Source: Mayamaea pseudoterrestris
Lineage: Eukaryota
Length of the DNA: 64,000 nucleotides
NCBI GenBank assembly: GCA_027923505.1
Contig: BROI01000017.1
Location: 62,001 to 126,000 of the forward strand
Direction: 5' to 3'
Made by a program: the position numbers and the translations under genes. Below the pieces are notes generated by a model. That model made no database searches. It had not been told where the DNA came from and saw only the letters and a program-made list of their open reading frames with translations. Position 1 is the first letter of the stretch; each line of letters starts with the position of its first letter. Positions 28,372 through 40,238 of this stretch are shown one piece after another.

Positions 28372-28545
28372 TGACGTAATTGACACTGGCACTTGTTTCA
28401 TACTATAGCCTTGTGACGTAATTGACACTGGCAGTCGTTTCGCAATATTGCCTTTTGACGCCATTGACACTGGCACTTGTTTCGTAGTATTGCCTTGTGA
28501 CGTAATTGATACTGGCACTTGTTTCATACTATTGCCTAATGACGT
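28372..28545 (-). repeat. 42-bp unit array, 4 copies, reverse orientation
   Basis: TGACGTAATTGACACTGGCACTTGTTTCATACTATTGCC units between divergent TAF11-like and importin alpha genes. Confidence 0.95.
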
Positions 28546-28753
28546 ACTATATCAAGAATGGTGCCCCCGAAACGTTACCGGGGGGCGCTGCTTCAACGTT
28601 CTGACGACAGTCAGACGATGGGGGCGCTAGCGAGCAACGGCCATGTCGCCAGCGCTGCACCATCCTCCCATTCATTTCGCAGCCGCAAGCCTTTCATTGC
28701 TTTTGCTTGCTCTCTTGTTACTTTATTATCTATTGTTTTCAATTCTTGCAAAA

Positions 28754-30745: not shown

Positions 30746-31124
30746 AGCATGTTTGCTCCCGACCTTGCATGATTGAACTGACGACAACGAAACACAACAA
30801 CAATAATAATAATACTAATCACAACCCCTGCGGCGTAGAAGAACCAAGATGACATTAATCTCTTGATGCTTTTACCCCGCTAAAGTCGCATGCGGTTGCT
30901 TGGACTTTCCGCCAAGGACCCGCTCTGACGATGCTTATTGGCCTCTTGTTCCCTACAAACTTTGATGTAGCGACCAAGACTTGCTAAATAATGATGCTGG
31001 GTTAATTAAATCTTGTACTCTATGTATTTGGTACTTGTAGTGACCATGGTGCGTCGTTCGAGTGAGTGTTGCATGGCAACGCATTCGATCACGTGCAGCG
31101 TGCGCCAGTTTGGCGGTCGTGCAT

Positions 31125-31255
31125 AATCATACACTATCGACCAAAGAGTACGACCAATAACTTTAATTTTCAACACACTGTCGACCAAAGAGCACTGCCA
31201 CAGTCATTTAAAGAGTAGTCCAAAAACTTTGAAAATAGGCCCAACTGGATCCATT
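31125..31255 (-). repeat. ~180-bp dispersed element, copy 2 (left part; remainder at 36957-36988), interrupted by the copia element
   Basis: The reconstructed empty site is collinear with 23653-23829. Confidence 0.8.
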
Positions 31256-31450
31256 TGTTGTGAATACGCACTCGCCATGACTCATTAATATCCCATTCTG
31301 TCCACCATCCATTCCATCGCTTCGCTCTCAGCCACTCGATTAGCAAGAGTCTCCTGGCGCTTACCGCCATGAGCTCATAATGTAACAATTCAACGTTATT
31401 GAACTAGTTTGCTTCGAGTGTCTGCTGTAGTACCTTGCGGCCCTTCAACA
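31256..31450 (+). repeat. 5' LTR
   Basis: Identical by eye to 36762-36956. Confidence 0.97.
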
Positions 31451-31462
31451 GAATTGTTACAT
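31451..31462 (+). promoter_or_regulatory. Primer-binding site complementary to the element's own LTR (31380-31391)
   Basis: GAATTGTTACAT directly follows the LTR and is the exact reverse complement of ATGTAACAATTC. There is no TGG start. Confidence 0.75.
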
Positions 31463-31551
31463 CTCACCCACCCGCTACCATTGCTCCTCACAGAATCCTC
31501 CAGCTCCTCCGTACCCTTCTCCGCCGCCTCTTCCGTGCCTCCCATCCCAAG

Positions 31552-32679
31552 ATGAACATCACGCTCCCTACGCTCGATCCTTTGACCATCATCGAAGGCA
31601 AGCCTACTTACTCTACCCTTACTATCGCCTCTGCTCAACTCCGCGCCAACGCTCGCAAGATTCCTGCCCGTTCTGATGACAACGGCCATGATTTTCTGTG
31701 CATGACGGACGCCGAGATCCTCGAACGCTTCCCTGATCCAGCCGCTCCCTTTGACCGCCCAACTCGCCCCGAGGAGCTCGGTCTTCAAGTCGCTGGCCTT
31801 ACCCAAAACCAACTGACTGAGCGCAATCGCATTCACAAAGAAAAATCCGACGATTTCAAGCTCATGCTAGTTGCCGACACTGCTCTCAAGACTTGCCTCC
31901 TTGCTGCTCTCAACGAAGACTACTATTCCGTCCTCAGAAACCGTCGTACCATCTACGCCAATCTCACCACGCTGCAGATCCTCACGCATCTCACCACCGC
32001 CTACGGACGCGTTTCCAACCAGGAACGCAAAGACAACGTTCTTCGTCTCCTCACGCCGTGGGATCCCAACGATCCCATCGAGCGCATTTGGAGTCGCATC
32101 ACCGACATCAACGACTTTGCCGAAGATGCCGGCACGCCCATTCCACCGGAACAACAGATCCACGACACGCTCCTCGTCCTCAACAACAGTGGCGTGTTTG
32201 CCGCCGATCTCGCCGCCTACGACCGCGATGTCGACGAGGTGGACCGCACCATGGAGAATCTTCAGGCCCGTTTCAACAAGGCCAACGACAAGCGCTTGGA
32301 GCACCGCACGGCTGGCCAAGCTGGCTATCAGGATCATGCCAACCTCGCGCAAACCGCCGAGTTAACTCGCCTCCGTCGCCAGTTGCAGCAGGCGATGGCC
32401 GCCATTCGCGATGGGACGCCCGCACCTACTCGTGTCACCCCTGCGACACCCACCACGCCTGCTCCAGCTATCACGCCTACGCCAGCGGCAGCGCCCACCG
32501 CTTCACCACGCGCCCGTCACTATTGCCACACTCATGGCTTTGGTCTCAACTACCGCCACACTAGCGCTACTTGCCAAAACCCTGGTCCAAATCATGTCAG
32601 CACGGCGACCGCTGACAATACCATGGGTGGCACCCTTACCGAGATGAGTCCTCGCAATCCCGCCAACCCTCGCAGCTGA
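31552..32679 (+). CDS. gag: Retrotransposon Gag
   Basis: 375-aa ORF after the 5' LTR with a C-terminal zinc-knuckle variant YCHTHG...HTSATC; ends at TGA in frame with pol. Confidence 0.9.
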   Translation: MNITLPTLDPLTIIEGKPTYSTLTIASAQLRANARKIPARSDDNGHDFLCMTDAEILERFPDPAAPFDRPTRPEELGLQVAGLTQNQLTERNRIHKEKSDDFKLMLVADTALKTCLLAALNEDYYSVLRNRRTIYANLTTLQILTHLTTAYGRVSNQERKDNVLRLLTPWDPNDPIERIWSRITDINDFAEDAGTPIPPEQQIHDTLLVLNNSGVFAADLAAYDRDVDEVDRTMENLQARFNKANDKRLEHRTAGQAGYQDHANLAQTAELTRLRRQLQQAMAAIRDGTPAPTRVTPATPTTPAPAITPTPAAAPTASPRARHYCHTHGFGLNYRHTSATCQNPGPNHVSTATADNTMGGTLTEMSPRNPANPRS

Positions 32680-35600
32680 GATGGAGGGACGCCAGTGATT
32701 GATAACACCTATAGCACCATGTCTCATGCTTATAGTACTTGTTTTTCGTTATCCTCTATCACTGGTCCTCCCGCCAATCCTACTTTTACCCTCATAGCTG
32801 ACAGTGGCGCCTCTGCCCACTTTGTCACCGTTAGCGCTCCCATCTTAAACAAGATTGCTACGACACACCCACTTGCAATTCAAACTCCCAACGGCACCCT
32901 CATGCATTCAACTCATGAGGCAACGCTCAACATTCCCGGTCTTCCCGAGTCGGCCACTAAAGCTCATATTGTCCCTGCTTTATCTACTCACTCCCTCCTT
33001 TCCCTCGGCACACTTTGTGATGCAGGCTGCCTCGTCTCCCTTGACAAGGAGCGAGTCCTCGTGCATTATAAAGAAGCGCTCGTCCTGAGTGGCGCTCGGT
33101 GTCCGGCCACTGGACTCTGGCAAATGGAGCTCCCTGCGCCATTGCCACAGAGCGCGCTTACTACCATTGGCGATCCCAAGTTGCCTGAGCTCATCACATT
33201 CTATCATGCCGCCCTTGGCTCGCCCAGTCTCCGCACCCTTGAGACTGCGCTCACTAAAGGGTTGCTACCCCACTTCCCTGGCCTAACAGCCAGCAACCTA
33301 CGCAAGCATCCGCCCGTCTCCTTTGCCATGCATAAAGGCCACATGAAAGCCCTACGCCAAGGCCTCCGTTCCACCAAGACACCAACTACAACAACAAACG
33401 CAGACGATGACGACGACGGCGACGTTTTCTTTCCTCTACAAGAAGGAACCGTTGCGACGCGCCACCACTGCTACGCCTCCTTTTTCAAGCCTACTGGTCA
33501 AATTTATACTGATCAAACTGGCAAAGTGTTTAATCCCTCGCTCAACGGGAATCAATACATCATGGTTCTATATGATTACGACAGCAATTATATCTGGCTC
33601 GAACCATTCAAAACTCGCAACGCCACCTGCATTCTCGAGGCCTACAAATCCCTTCTTAAACGCCTCACTCGCGCTGGTCTCCAACCCCAGCTCCAGCGTC
33701 TTGATAACGAATGCTCCCAGCTTTTAAAAGACTACATGCACGACCAAAAGATTGATTTCCAGCTGGTCGGTCATGGATTGCACCGCCGCAACCTCGCGGA
33801 ACGAGCCATTGGCACGTTTGAAAACCATTTTGTTGCTATCCTCTGCGGCATTGACAAAGCTTTTCCTCTCCATTTGTGGGATAAACTCATTCCCCAGACT
33901 GAAATCACACTCAATATGTGCCGCGGCTCTCGCATCAATCCCAAGCTGTCTGCCTACACGCTAGTGCATGGACTCTTCGACCTCAACCGCACGCCTCTGG
34001 CCCCTATCGGCATCCGTGTCCTTGCTCATGTTCCTACTGAAGACCGTGGATCCTTTGAGCCTCGCGCACTTGATGGTTGGTATCTCGGTCCTGCGCTTGA
34101 CTCGTACCGAGGCCATCGCGTGTGGATTTGGAAGACGAACGCCGAACGGACATGCCATCAAGTCACATGGCTGCCTCCGCCTGCCATTCCAATGCCTCTC
34201 TCTACGCCTGATTCACGCATACATGCGGCATTGGAAGACCTCAAACTCGCCATCGCCTCCACTGATCCACCGGCATCCCTCACACCGACTACCGACAGTC
34301 GCGTCCGTGCTCTTGCCGACCTCATCGCTCTCTACCAACCTCCTGCTGCCGACCCTGCGCCACTTCTGAGGGTGGACAACCCGCCAACTGTCTCTCCACC
34401 GCCTGGGTTTGCGCCACAAATGAGGGTGCCGACTGACAAGGCCCTCCCCTCTCCGGCGGCCCTCCCCTCTCCGGCAAGCGCACCTACTCGTGTCACCGAT
34501 ACGACACCTGCCACGCCGCTCGGTTCGCCACCAACGCCAACCCCTTCGCCAGTCCCCACGCCTGACGTGCCGCCCGCCGCACCGCCGCCCGTTGACGCGC
34601 CAACCTCGCCTGCTGTCACCTATGATGACGTCACGGGCCCACGCCGCCGCCGCCGCAAGACCAAGAAACCCGACGCCGATCCTCCCCTCCACGATGAGCC
34701 CTCCGCTCACGCTGATGGATTGCCGTCCATTTCCCCCCATCAAGCTCGCCGCAATGAACAACTCGCTCTTAAACGAGTCCGTTTTCTCCGTCCTTCCCCT
34801 TTGTCTCCTCATCCTAAACGCCCCAGCCGACTCTCCATCTTTCCTACCCAGCCAAAGCAACGTCCCATCACGGACTTCGTCCGCTCCACACCCCGGGGCA
34901 AGGCAATGACGGCGCTTCGCGAATTCAACCTTGGCGTCGCAAAATGGACTGACATTGAAACAACTTGCAACCGACTCGGCTTCGCCTACCTTGGCAGCGC
35001 CATCAATCCCGATACTGGCCGTGTGGCTGAAATTCGCGAACTGCTCGAATGCAGCGAAGGCAACGAGTGGGAAGCCTCCATGATTGATGAACTTGCGCGC
35101 CTCAGCCAAGGCTACAACGACATCAAAGGCACCGATACGCTACGCTTCATCCACTATCGCGACGTACCCGACGACAAGATCCCTACGTATGCCCGCATCG
35201 TCTCCGCCTGGCGCCCCGAGAAGGAGAATCCTCGGCGTGTCCGCATCACCGTCGGCGGCGATCGCATCAACTATCCTGGCGCCACTGCTACTAAAGCCGC
35301 CGACTTGACCACCGTTAAAGTGCTCCTCAACTCGGTTATCTCTACACCTGGCGCGCGATTCGCTACAATCGACATCAAGGACTTCTATCTGAACACGCCC
35401 ATGGAAACGAAGGAATACATGCGCATCTCGCTCAACCTCATTCCCGACGCCTTTCGCCTGCTCTACGATCTCGATTCCAAAGCTCACAACGGCTACATCT
35501 ACACTGAAATCTCAAAGGGCATGTACGGTCTCCCTCAAGCTGGCCGCTTGGCACATGACTTGCTCGTCAAGCGCCTCGCTGCTCATGGTTACTCGCCCGC

Positions 35601-36732
35601 GCCGCTCACGCCGGGTTTCTGGCGCCACAAAACGCGACCCATCTGCTTCTCGCTCGTTGTTGACGACTTTGGCATTAAATATACTGATAACGCCGATCTG
35701 GATCACCTGCTGGCCGCTCTCCAAGCCACTTACAAAGTCAGTCTGGATCTCACTGGCGCCCGCTACTGTGGCCTCACCATTGACTGGGACTACCCGCACG
35801 GCACGTGTGATATCTCCATGCCCGGCTACATTGAAAGAGCACTCGAACGTTTCCAACATCAAATGCCTGCAAAGCCCCAGCACTCGCCCCACGCCTGGCT
35901 CAAACCCGTCTACGGCGCCAAGCAACAATTTGCTCCGGCGCCCGACGACACTGCTACTGTCAATAAAGCTGACGCTACACGCGTTCAAGAGGTGATGGGC
36001 GTCCTGCTTTATTACGCGCGCGCCGTTGATTCAACACTACTCAAAGCGCTCAACGAAATTGCCTCTAAACAAGCCGCCCCAACTCACAAAACAATGCTCG
36101 CCTTCCTACAAGTCCTCGATTACTGCGCCTCAAACCCCAATGCCATTGTGCGTTTCACTGCCAGCGAAATGTGTTTGTGGCAACATAGCGACGCCTCCTA
36201 TCTCTCTGCCGCCAAAGCTCGCTCGTGCGCTGGTGGTTTCCATTTTCTAAGCAGCTGGCCCGAGTCCCCTCTTGGCCCCACTAGCAAAGCTCCACCTCAC
36301 AACGGCGCTATCAACGTACTTTGTCAAATCATGAAGGAGGTCCTCTCTAGCGCCGCCGAGGCAGAACTCGGAGCGCTCTTCCATAACGCCAAAGAAGCTT
36401 GTCCCATTCGTCATCTACTAGAAGAATTGGGGCATCCTCAACCAGCTACACCGCTACAAACTGACAACGTCACTGCCGCTGGCATTGCCAACGACACTGT
36501 TAAACAAAAACGCTCCAAAGCTATTGACATGCGATTCTACTGGCTACGCGACCGCGTCGACCAAAATCAATTCCAAATCTATTGGAGCAAGGGAGCTGGA
36601 AACCTTGCCGACTACTTTACTAAGCATCATCCTGCTTCCCACCATCAAGATATCCGCTCTGTTTACCTGCACGACGGCCTCGCCTCTCCGAATTACTTCG
36701 AACGCCTCGCTGCCGCTACAGAGCCTGTCTAA
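32680..36732 (+). CDS. pol: Retrotransposon Pol (protease, integrase, RT, RNase H), in frame with gag
   Basis: LIADSGAS protease; YTDQTG/LDNE/AERAI integrase; DIKDFYL, GMYGLPQAG and VVDDF RT; HSDASY/EAELGAL/TDN RNase H. Uninterrupted. Confidence 0.96.
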   Translation, partial: DGGTPVIDNTYSTMSHAYSTCFSLSSITGPPANPTFTLIADSGASAHFVTVSAPILNKIATTHPLAIQTPNGTLMHSTHEATLNIPGLPESATKAHIVPALSTHSLLSLGTLCDAGCLVSLDKERVLVHYKEALVLSGARCPATGLWQMELPAPLPQSALTTIGDPKLPELITFYHAALGSPSLRTLETALTKGLLPHFPGLTASNLRKHPPVSFAMHKGHMKALRQGLRSTKTPTTTTNADDDDDGDVFFPLQEGTVATRHHCYASFFKPTGQIYTDQTGKVFNPSLNGNQYIMVLYDYDSNYIWLEPFKTRNATCILEAYKSLLKRLTRAGLQPQLQRLDNECSQLLKDYMHDQKIDFQLVGHGLHRRNLAERAIGTFENHFVAILCGIDKAFPLHLWDKLIPQTEITLNMCRGSRINPKLSAYTLVHGLFDLNRTPLAPIGIRVLAHVPTEDRGSFEPRALDGWYLGPALDSYRGHRVWIWKTNAERTCHQVTWLPPPAIPMPLSTPDSRIHAALEDLKLAIASTDPPASLTPTTDSRVRALADLIALYQPPAADPAPLLRVDNPPTVSPPPGFAPQMRVPTDKALPSPAALPSPASAPTRVTDTTPATPLGSPPTPTPSPVPTPDVPPAAPPPVDAPTSPAVTYDDVTGPRRRRRKTKKPDADPPLHDEPSAHADGLPSISPHQARRNEQLALKRVRFLRPSPLSPHPKRPSRLSIFPTQPKQRPITDFVRSTPRGKAMTALREFNLGVAKWTDIETTCNRLGFAYLGSAINPDTGRVAEIRELLECSEGNEWEASMIDELARLSQGYNDIKGTDTLRFIHYRDVPDDKIPTYARIVSAWRPEKENPRRVRITVGGDRINYPGATATKAADLTTVKVLLNSVISTPGARFATIDIKDFYLNTPMETKEYMRISLNLIPDAFRLLYDLDSKAHNGYIYTEISKGMYGLPQAGRLAHDLLVKRLAAHGYSPAPLTPGFWRHKTRPICFSLVVDDFGIKYTDNADLDHLLAALQATYKVSLDLTGARYCGLTIDWDYPHGTCDISMPGYIERALERFQHQMPAKPQHSPHAWLKPVYGAKQQFAPAPDDTATVNKADATRVQEVMGVLLYYARAVDSTLLKALNEIASKQAAPTHKTMLAFLQVLDYCASNPNAIVRFTASEMCLWQHSDASYLSAAKARSCAGGFHFLSSWPESPLGPTSKAPPHNGAINVLCQIMKEVLSSAAEAELGALFHNAKEACPIRHLLEELGHPQPATPLQTDNVTAAGIANDTVKQKRSKAIDMRFYWLRDRVDQNQFQIYWSKGAGNLADYFTKHHPASHHQDIRSVYLHDGLASPNYFERLAAATEPV

Positions 36733-36761
36733 CTTTCTTCTCATGGATTGTGGTGAGGGTG

Positions 36762-36956
36762 TGTTGTGAATACGCACTCGCCATGACTCATTAATATCCC
36801 ATTCTGTCCACCATCCATTCCATCGCTTCGCTCTCAGCCACTCGATTAGCAAGAGTCTCCTGGCGCTTACCGCCATGAGCTCATAATGTAACAATTCAAC
36901 GTTATTGAACTAGTTTGCTTCGAGTGTCTGCTGTAGTACCTTGCGGCCCTTCAACA
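36762..36956 (+). repeat. 3' LTR
   Basis: Identical by eye to 31256-31450. Confidence 0.97.
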
Positions 36957-37199
36957 CCATTGATATGATTGGATGAATGGTACGTCACAAATGACCTTGC
37001 CGTGACTGTTGCCGCCACCACGATTTGAGTCGCCATGGCTGCCGGCGGCTGCTATTCCGCGGCTTCCGCAGACGATGAACATTACTTATCAACAAAAGCA
37101 ACTGTCTCTTTCATGCATCGTCTCAGAGAAAATACGGCACTGCCTCGGAACCCGAATCACAAGCAACAAACGTTGAAGTCTTTGCTTGCACCTTGTGCT

Positions 37200-37918
37200 C
37201 GTCGCCTTTGCTATTCTTGCCTGACTTGACCAAGATGCAAGTCCAATACCAACATCAATAGCTCTTTGAGCATCTTGTAACGCGTCGTCACCAGTCACGA
37301 CCGTTTCAGAGGCGTCATTACCATTCAAAGTGCGCTGTCAAAAAAGGTCTCGACGTGGCTTGCCCATGACGATCGCCGCTCGATGCATGGCCATTTCCAA
37401 GCCGGTCACAAACGGTCCTGACCCAAGACTAAGCATTTGTTTGGCGTCGCGATGATACTTGGCCATGCCAATGGCAATCAATGGCCGCTCTGGATGCCGC
37501 ATGTGAATTTGAAACGTCTTGTTCATGCGCTATTAATTACATACAGTCGGAGCGAGCCCAACGACAACGGCGTCATGCGGTGGTTCGAGGGGGATTTTGG
37601 CGGCTTTACAGTCACGAGTGACTTCCGTGATCCCTCTTTAATAGATAGTTGCGAGTTGCCAAGACGCTCGTGATGAGCATATCGTCCAAGCTGTCTGCGC
37701 CGCTTTGATTGACGACTCCGAATTCTGCGAGTCGCTTCCAAATGGCTTGCGATGAGTGCGTTTAGGTATTTGTCAGGAGTGGACTTGCTAATCTGCTTCT
37801 CGATGTCTCTGATAGCTTGTGCGGCTCCGTCAATGACCGTCGTGTCAGTATAAAGCGTCCCCGACAAGGCAAGGAGGACGGCTTTGAGACTTGAATCCTT
37901 GAATGCCTGTGATGGCAT
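37200..37918 (-). pseudogene. HDHD2/LHPP-like HAD class IIA hydrolase pseudogene
   Basis: LKAVLLALSGTL (catalytic Asp replaced by Ala), VVVGLAP, PLIAIGMAKY..LSLGSGPFVTGLE..VMGKP and GDD, split over three ORFs by stops and frameshifts. Confidence 0.8.
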
Positions 37919-39110: not shown

Positions 39111-39539
39111 AGAATGTAGAGGGACTGGGTCAACCTTGTATTGGCTTGCTATTAGTCGTGTCATTTGCTACTGCATGCTTCCCACGGTGTTGGCTGAATA
39201 CATAGCTACTTTCTGTCTATCTCATTGTATTATGATTTTGTTGCCAAAGTTTGTTTGCAGTTCTACCTCAAACTGCGTTGCACCAATAGGTGCCCAATGA
39301 TGTGGCCTACCTGTAGAAGACAGAGAGAGTTAAGAAACATCTTTATTTATACTCCTATCCCGAAAACCGTCTCCCCACCTGTAGTGACAAGCGATAATTG
39401 ATAGATTCACAGATGTATGTGGGACATTTGTCAAGTCTAAACCCCGCGTGACTGATCAATATATTCCTTAACCTACTCATTCCCTGGACTAAAGAATAAT
39501 TGCATGTCCTGGTTGCTTTCTTTATTCTGAAATGAGTTA

Positions 39540-40238
39540 TGACAGCCACCGACTGTGGACAAGCCTGGGGACACGAAATTCTGGCGGTCCTAGAGGCAGA
39601 ACTTGGAGACTACACGGACTGGAGATGAATGCATTGCACTTTCATCTTCATGAAACAATGCCTGTCAACTGCCAGCTATCAGTTTATACCTCTCTGGCCA
39701 TTGGAGTGGGTCATCATGGCAGCCAGCTACTGTGGACAAGCCTGGGGACACAAAATTCTGGTGGTCCTACAGGCAGAACTTGGAGACAAGATGGGGTAGT
39801 GATGAATGTATTGCACTTTTGACACCTTGAAACAATGCCTGTCAACTGCCAGCTATCAATTTATACCTCTCTGGCTGCTGGAGTGGGTCATGGCAGCCAG
39901 CTACTGTGGACAAGCCTGGGACCGCAAATTCTGGCAGTCCCTGTTGCAGAACTTGGAGACTACATGGGGTAGTGATGATTGCATTGCACTTTTGACATCA
40001 TGAAACAATGCCTGTCAACTGTTAGCTATCAATTTATACCTCTCTGGCTGTTGGAGTGGGTTATGGCAGCTAGCTACTGTCGACAAGCCTGGGGCCTTAA
40101 AATACAGGCAGTCCTACTGGCATATCTTGGAGACTAGATGGGCTAGTGATGAATGCATTGCACTTTCTACATCATGAAACAATGCCTGTCAACTGCCAGC
40201 TATCAATTTATATATCTCTGGCTGTAAGAGTGGGTTCA
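39540..40238. repeat. Second satellite-like array, ~4 diverged copies of a 173-177-bp unit
   Basis: TGTGGACAAGCCTGGG starts at 39554, 39731, 39905 and 40078 (variant); GAAACAATGCCTGTCAACTG recurs four times. Confidence 0.93.

Follow-up and report, generated by a model that had tools for sequence, protein, structure and literature searches.

The intact Ty1/copia-like retrotransposon at positions 31256-36956 of the window, by which we mean the whole 64-kb stretch of DNA analysed here, probably primes its own reverse transcription. On the comparative evidence laid out below we hold with good confidence that minus-strand synthesis proceeds by self-priming of the Tf1 type, since a complementarity that begins exactly at the end of the LTR, that is realized by a different pair of sequences in each family and that nowhere looks like a tRNA site makes self-priming by far the simplest account. 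This reading had been advanced in an earlier note from the window alone, and it is now supported by relatives in which the pairing between LTR and primer binding site (PBS) is conserved and covaries.

A copia-type element with a PBS complementary to its own LTR

The element, a complete LTR retrotransposon, lies on the forward strand between two copies of the target-site duplication CCATT (31251-31255 and 36957-36961). Its two LTRs, each 195 nt long and of the form TGTTG...CAACA, occupy 31256-31450 and 36762-36956 and are identical at 195 of 195 positions. A gag open reading frame of 375 codons (31552-32679) runs from the ATG at 31552 to an in-frame TGA at 32677-32679, the single stop that separates it from a pol frame of 1350 codons in the same register (32680-36732), in which a protease (with DSGAS near the beginning of the frame), an integrase region, a reverse transcriptase (RT) and an RNase H follow one another. 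A polypurine tract region with the core GGTGAGGGTG (36745-36761) adjoins the 3' LTR, and the heptamer GAGGGTG stands immediately 5' of that LTR in the window as well as in the relatives L025, L048 and L058.

Two LTRs, TG...CA ends and a 5-bp target-site duplication agree with assignment to Ty1/copia. The Pfam domain SH3_retrovirus, the C-terminal part of integrase, is found at pol residues 440-488 and RVT_2 at residues 874-1059 (a weak match, with 26 bits and an E value of 8.5e-6 against a curated cut-off of 31.6), so that the integrase region precedes RT, as in the Ty1/copia domain order; the integrase core itself has no Pfam match in the window's pol. Membership in the Tf1/sushi clade was considered and rejected on the same ground, the integrase-associated domain lying before RT. 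Each of the best 120 protein relatives listed is either diatom-named or an unnamed metagenome protein, and identity to the closest of them is 43-64%, taken over the best-aligned segment; the diatoms named among these matches are Fragilaria crotonensis, Cylindrotheca closterium and Fistulifera solaris, many of the listed proteins carry a precomputed PF07727 match, and one is named as a Ty1/copia-type RT. A scan of 31000-37200 against Rfam at E values up to 1 gave 0 matches, a scan of IMG/VR gave no relative, and no second copy was found within the 64-kb window, in which ARAGORN also detected no tRNA gene, as in the 20 longest of the 76 loci described below. We take the element for a recent insertion of a Ty1/copia-like LTR retrotransposon, apparently autonomous and belonging to a diatom lineage. 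Two tandem arrays lie at a distance on either side of it: a 42-nt unit is repeated about five times at 28372-28581, and at 39539-40238 a longer unit, of about 175 nt, is present four times at 72-86% identity.

Contigs from the sequencing run X1 join position 31251 directly to 36958 and, in another form, 31242 to 36961 with 12 other letters between. Such flank-to-flank joints mean that an empty-site allele or haplotype exists and that the insertion is hemizygous or polymorphic; X1 is possibly the source sample of the window, in which case the evidence for the empty site is not independent of it. Out of 180 aligned X1 contigs, 56 are at least 99% alike to the element, 65 are 95-99% alike and 59 are 90-95% alike, and the large share at 90-99% implies that the family has several diverged copies. 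Judged by its identical LTRs, its open gag and pol frames and the empty-site form, the copy in the window looks recently active.

The boundary between gag and pol is itself a shared trait of the lineage. In 29 of the 30 elements examined, which comprise the window's and loci from the range L001-L058, the two genes lie in the same frame with a single stop codon between them, TGA in 24 cases and TAG in 5, and in most elements GGG follows 6 nt after the stop, as in the window, where the sequence reads TGA GAT GGA GGG (32677-32688). The arrangement has the look of programmed readthrough at the stop codon; in a copia-type element that would be unusual. Tj1 of Schizosaccharomyces japonicus, another self-primer, is described as also needing its gag stop codon (PMC4600332).

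The feature of interest stands at the first base after the 5' LTR. The putative PBS, GAATTGTTACAT (31451-31462), lacks the TGG start that marks a site for the 3' end of a tRNA and is the exact reverse complement of a 12-nt arm inside the LTR, ATGTAACAATTC (31380-31391), behind which 59 nt of LTR remain (31392-31450). Because the LTR ends are fixed both by the identical repeats and by the CCATT duplication, the complementarity is known to start at the first post-LTR base; it ends at 12 nt, the corresponding 13-mer being absent from the LTR. In the whole window the 12-mer of the arm is present in the two LTRs only, and its complement only at 31451. The motif TCATA, similar to an initiator, is confirmed at 31375-31379, immediately 5' of the arm, and a second copy of motif and arm lies in the 3' LTR at 36881-36897. 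The earlier estimate of roughly 1e-5 agrees with an expectation of 1.39e-5, based on the composition of the LTR itself, for a given 12-mer in 184 LTR positions. A looser test admits any perfect inverted repeat with a loop of 10-200 nt, wherever it lies within 621 nt upstream of gag; by this standard a repeat of 12 nt is attained in 3 of 200 dinucleotide shuffles of the leader. Taken alone, the single case in the window is suggestive; it becomes compelling only together with the relatives.

A hairpin conserved in place and variable in sequence

Thirty relatives were aligned with the window's pol, and a search of metagenome contigs yielded 66 loci. Many of these are contigs of 5-6 kb whose ends overlap or whose order is permuted (pol end, LTR, PBS, gag), and it is this property that makes the junction from LTR to gag readable. 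Contigs of this kind, 5.3-6.2 kb long (for example L002, L004, L005, L014, L023, L050 and L065), could be assembly collapses of two LTRs, tandem copies or circles with one LTR. The N-terminal part of gag was matched in 32 sequences, and the 29 with at least 250 nt upstream of it entered the hairpin count; left out were L010 (157 nt upstream), L040 (93 nt) and L051 (an invalid coordinate), of which L010 still shows a 13-nt hairpin.

A perfect inverted repeat of 11-14 nt was found upstream of gag in 24 of the 29 sequences. Dinucleotide shuffles attain that length in 74 of 5800 cases (1.3%), and none of 82 coding windows of equal size taken from these loci does. The remaining five carry, by eye, a weaker duplex in the same place (9 bp, or 8-13 bp with a mismatch or bulge): 9 bp in L024, 13 bp with one A.C mismatch in L064, a bulge of 1-2 nt in L050 and in L022, and both a mismatch and a bulge in L055, whose pol is broken. 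The same hairpin was found downstream of pol in 12 of the 35 loci that have no match to the gag N-terminus. Ten more of these 35 were inspected by motif, among which L065 has a duplex of 9 bp, L047 one of 12 with two mismatches, and L012 stops inside the loop; L052 and L053, which have the region and in which no convincing duplex was seen by eye, may have decayed or may represent 3' LTRs with flanking DNA behind them, and in the rest of this group the region is absent or a 3' LTR runs into flank.

As a hold-out, a second collection was searched and gave ten loci (L067-L076), five of which include the region. Perfect arms of 12, 15 and 12 nt are present in three of the five, a 9-bp duplex in the fourth and an imperfect duplex with a core of 8 bp in the fifth. 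The held-out contigs are filed in bacterial metagenome-assembled genomes (cyanobacterial, Variovorax, alphaproteobacterial, Sphingobacteriaceae and others); those shorter than about 6.5 kb are, by appearance, mis-binned eukaryotic DNA, and two of the loci, L074 and L075, comprise fragments of pol on contigs that measure 48.7 and 10.6 kb.

The position of the duplex is best judged where both LTRs and their flanks are available, that is, in the window (CCATT), L025 (CATCC) and L058 (CTCCT). In all three of these elements bounded by target duplications the duplex starts with the base that directly follows the LTR, as the priming geometry proposed for the window requires, with a perfect complement of 12, 13 and 10 nt, respectively, and a different sequence in each. 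The terminal repeats of L002 (1-126) and L005 (1-91), moreover, end exactly where the hairpin predicts the end of the LTR.

Across 35 non-redundant hairpins the architecture is uniform. The arms measure 10-14 nt, most often 12, and enclose loops of 27-61 nt, which would make up what is left of R together with U5. In 34 of 35 the PBS is preceded by an A, which most often belongs to TCAAYA or YAGCA, and 0 of 35 PBSs start with TGG, the tRNA 3'-end signature whose absence was observed in the window. Upstream of the arm stands a motif CAY(A/T), whose C lies 16, 17 or 18 nt from the 3' end of the arm in 5, 21 and 9 of the 35 hairpins. A motif TCAH(+1)W, earlier given as CAY(+1)A, has been proposed as initiator-like at diatom transcription starts (PMC4686930), and the sequence before the arm fits that published consensus, by which the transcript of the window element would start at about 31377-31378, or 2-3 nt before the duplex. 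The constancy of the 16-18 nt between motif and predicted cut suggests that the site of cleavage is set by its distance from the 5' end of the RNA itself.

Other features of this region may be recorded alongside. The bases that follow the predicted cut (31392-31397 in the window, columns 30-35 of the alignment A3 described below) are semi-conserved, as ACCGTT, ACCTTT, AACGTT or ATCGTT, and may be part of what the enzyme recognizes; in the folds of L001, L002, L003 and L005 the post-cut GUU pairs with the LTR-terminal AAC, by which the stem is continued beyond an internal loop. The hexamer CATAA(A/T), conserved ahead of the arm (31375-31381 in the window), is A/T-rich and present in the 3' LTR too, and one may speculate that it also forms part of a poly(A) signal, the transcript being cleaved some tens of bases further 3'.

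The earlier note had proposed as a test that complementarity be kept with covarying sequence in related elements, and the outcome is strongly positive. The sets analysed for covariation had been chosen for a perfect repeat, so that the percentage of paired positions is partly given by construction and the informative parts are the diversity of the sequences and the controls. That diversity is large: a script counted 20 distinct 11-nt arms in 23 non-redundant elements with perfect arms, which differ from one another at 1-9 positions, and by eye 32 distinct 11-nt arms were counted in the 35 non-redundant hairpins. In the 23 elements each of positions 1-11 is occupied by two to four types of Watson-Crick pair, and pairing decays beyond position 11, with 19, 9 and 4 of the 23 still paired at positions 12, 13 and 14. 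When the PBS of one element was compared with the LTR of another, a match of at least 11 nt occurred in 5 of 506 pairs, all of which share an arm, and the other 501 matched over 8 nt or less; scores of 0 obtained for L010 and L013 against their own LTRs are an artefact, their arms lying less than 120 nt from the start of the contig.

Structural analyses agree with these counts. On the MAFFT alignment A3, RNAalifold predicted this helix of 12 bp as the only one, with compensatory change in every one of its pairs. In the same alignment 90.2% of the cells pair, compared with 58.7% after shuffling and 28-36% with slid partners, and the covariation score is 0.731, compared with 0.155 in shuffles (0 of 500 reach the observed value) and 0.077-0.130 with slid partners. 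A3 shifts the window's arm by one column and misaligns the 3' arm of L023, and with these two rows misplaced the RNAalifold and pair-count figures understate the pairing. Folding from the predicted start places the stem of primer and PBS in the minimum-energy structure of 16 of 16 RNAs; the z-scores of these folds are -2.2 for the window and -3.0 to -6.1 for the 15 relatives, and over all foldings the window's own RNA does only modestly better than its shuffles (z of -1.5 to -2.2).

The proposed priming reaction and competing explanations

The end of the LTR is where the 3' end of the minus-strand primer sits, and the position of a PBS is not arbitrary. By analogy with Tf1, for which the mechanism is established, and with Tj1, for which it is proposed (PMC4600332), the reaction may be pictured as follows. 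Transcription would start at about 31377-31378, 2-3 nt before the arm, and the first 15 nt or so of the element's RNA would fold back onto the PBS; the element's own RNase H would then cut after C31391, and RT would extend from the 3' end so produced, copying A31450 first and stopping at 31392 to give a strong-stop DNA of 59 nt, which would transfer to R in the 3' LTR. The primer would be retained and copied during plus-strand synthesis, and by this route every cycle would copy the PBS anew from the arm. Re-copying of this kind would explain why the match is perfect in most copies despite the drift between families, and also why young copies are perfect and imperfect ones show, by eye, mismatches and bulges rather than G.U pairs. 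For Tf1, one study reportedly announces in its title that the self primer is not removed. A difficulty of the proposed scheme is that R plus U5 is very short, 27-61 nt after the cut, which would leave little room for strand-transfer homology.

A duplex in a 5' leader may, of course, serve some other end, and the hairpin might act in packaging, dimerization, translational control of gag or 3'-end formation while a different primer is used. That the stem encloses the whole of R-U5 and lies in the 5' leader, in which signals of this kind are commonly found, speaks for this possibility, as does the report that fungal GalEa copia elements have a conserved hairpin in the place of the PBS whose role is described as unknown (PMC5445492). 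We nonetheless regard this reading as improbable, given that the 3' arm sits at the first post-LTR base in all three bounded elements and follows an A-ending LTR terminus in 34 of 35, that the otherwise unconserved region offers no visible alternative PBS (none of the 35 with TGG), and that the pairing breaks off abruptly at 11-14 nt, as befits a primer and not a general stem. The palindromic site of GalEa type was in turn rejected as a description of the window element, because its post-LTR sequence is not palindromic and has a complement in the LTR. A variant in which the LTR arm primes in trans, by way of a short RNA from the transcript of another copy or from a co-packaged second genome, is a distinctly improbable one in our judgement. 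Sequence alone cannot separate priming in cis from priming in trans, and the family is multi-copy in run X1; yet the 5 cross-family matches in 506 pairs limit potential donors to near-identical copies, the intramolecular stem is the minimum-energy fold in all 16 RNAs, and the fixed distance of 16-18 nt from the initiator-like motif points to a cut measured from the RNA's own 5' end.

That a host tRNA, half-tRNA or other small host RNA is the primer and the match to the LTR incidental is very improbable. tRNA or half-tRNA primers are those that characterised copia elements are described as using (PMC6317226), but the relatives present 32 distinct 11-nt arms in 35 hairpins, each matching its own LTR, and conserved host RNAs cannot account for PBSs so unlike one another that as many as 9 of 11 positions are different. 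The absence of any PBS beginning with TGG makes a tRNA primer very unlikely, and the divergence of the PBS between relatives argues against any conserved tRNA in that role. The chance that the complementarity is an accident confined to the window element is negligible. The unanchored test, in which shuffling of the window's leader gave a 12-nt repeat in 3 of 200 cases, is what can be said for it, and against it stand the anchored expectation of 1.4e-5 and, above all, the recurrence of the repeat in 24 of 29 relatives, in 12 further loci and in three of the five held-out loci with the region, by which coincidence is refuted.

Known systems and the meaning of probable self-priming in diatoms

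Self-priming as read here from the LTR and PBS has close parallels. In Tf1 of Schizosaccharomyces pombe it is reported as experimentally demonstrated (PMC4600332), and the Tf1/sushi elements, Tj1 of S. japonicus among them, share with the diatom elements a PBS complementary to a segment of the LTR that is regarded as the 5' end of the mRNA, in a duplex of about 11 nt that makes a tRNA unnecessary. These elements are Ty3/gypsy chromoviruses in which integrase follows RT, whereas in the window element the integrase region precedes it, and by this copia-type domain order the latter, which would work like Tf1 and Tj1, stands outside their clade. The diatom clade differs from Tf1 also in the 2-3 unpaired nucleotides predicted before the duplex and in an R-U5 that extends only 27-61 nt past the arm. 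The Tf1 mechanism, moreover, is described as experimental, whereas the biochemical steps set out above for the window element are all deduced from its sequence.

Nearer in classification is the TAR lineage of plant Ty1/copia elements, which Neumann et al. 2019 predict to self-prime, with Capy 2005 cited for Houba and Osr-1, members of that lineage (PMC6317226). As described there, TAR elements are likewise of Ty1/copia type and have a PBS predicted to pair with their own transcript rather than with a tRNA; they differ in having plant hosts and, apparently, in belonging to another lineage, the named relatives of the window element being all diatom among the best 120 matches listed. The remark in the earlier note that self-priming was not known to have been described for a copia element is therefore outdated; the present case is not the first for copia, given the prediction for plant TAR, and is apparently undescribed for diatom elements. 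The GalEa elements share with ours the combination of a copia-type element, the lack of a tRNA-type PBS and a conserved structure at the PBS position (PMC5445492). Their Conserved Hairpin Site is described as a palindrome of 9 bp into which the terminal A of the LTR falls, with a local hairpin after it, and the authors report having found no LTR sequence complementary to it (PMC5445492); the post-LTR 12-mer of the window differs in that it is not palindromic and pairs inside the LTR.

Among diatom elements the closest comparison is with the CoDi elements of Maumus et al. 2009, which are described as having diatom hosts, Ty1/copia order, short LTRs and one stop or none between gag and pol (PMC2806351), all of which apply to the present element as well. 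The main text of that paper mentions neither a primer binding site nor tRNA priming (PMC2806351). More generally, no link between self-priming and diatom copia elements was found in the full-text literature as available, to which supplementary tables may add, and in the diatom transposable-element papers so covered the phrase 'primer binding site' occurs in a single line of methods on an LTRdigest filter (PMC7466962). That filter, which retained only those LTR candidates that bear a PBS, was applied to a diatom genome (PMC7466962), and if it matches the PBS against tRNAs, self-priming elements would be dropped and the clade under-counted.

These findings bear on more than the annotation of one element. 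They would add a large, widespread algal lineage of copia type to the elements that prime reverse transcription from their own RNA, independently of tRNA, and the comparative support is unusually clean, in that dozens of families each possess a primer and a PBS of their own that match. The shared rule of hairpin construction predicts the border between U3 and R and separates intact from decayed copies, and the copy in the window, if recently active, would be a candidate for direct tests. The diatom case also bears on how priming evolved. It is conceivable, if unlikely, that self-priming, far from being a peculiarity of the Tf1/sushi chromoviruses, is ancestral for Ty1/copia or even for all LTR retrotransposons, having been kept in the diatom lineage, in TAR and in Tf1/sushi while tRNA priming arose later. 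Were that so, its simplest living example would be found in the diatom clade, where R-U5 is minimal and the initiator would set the length of the primer.
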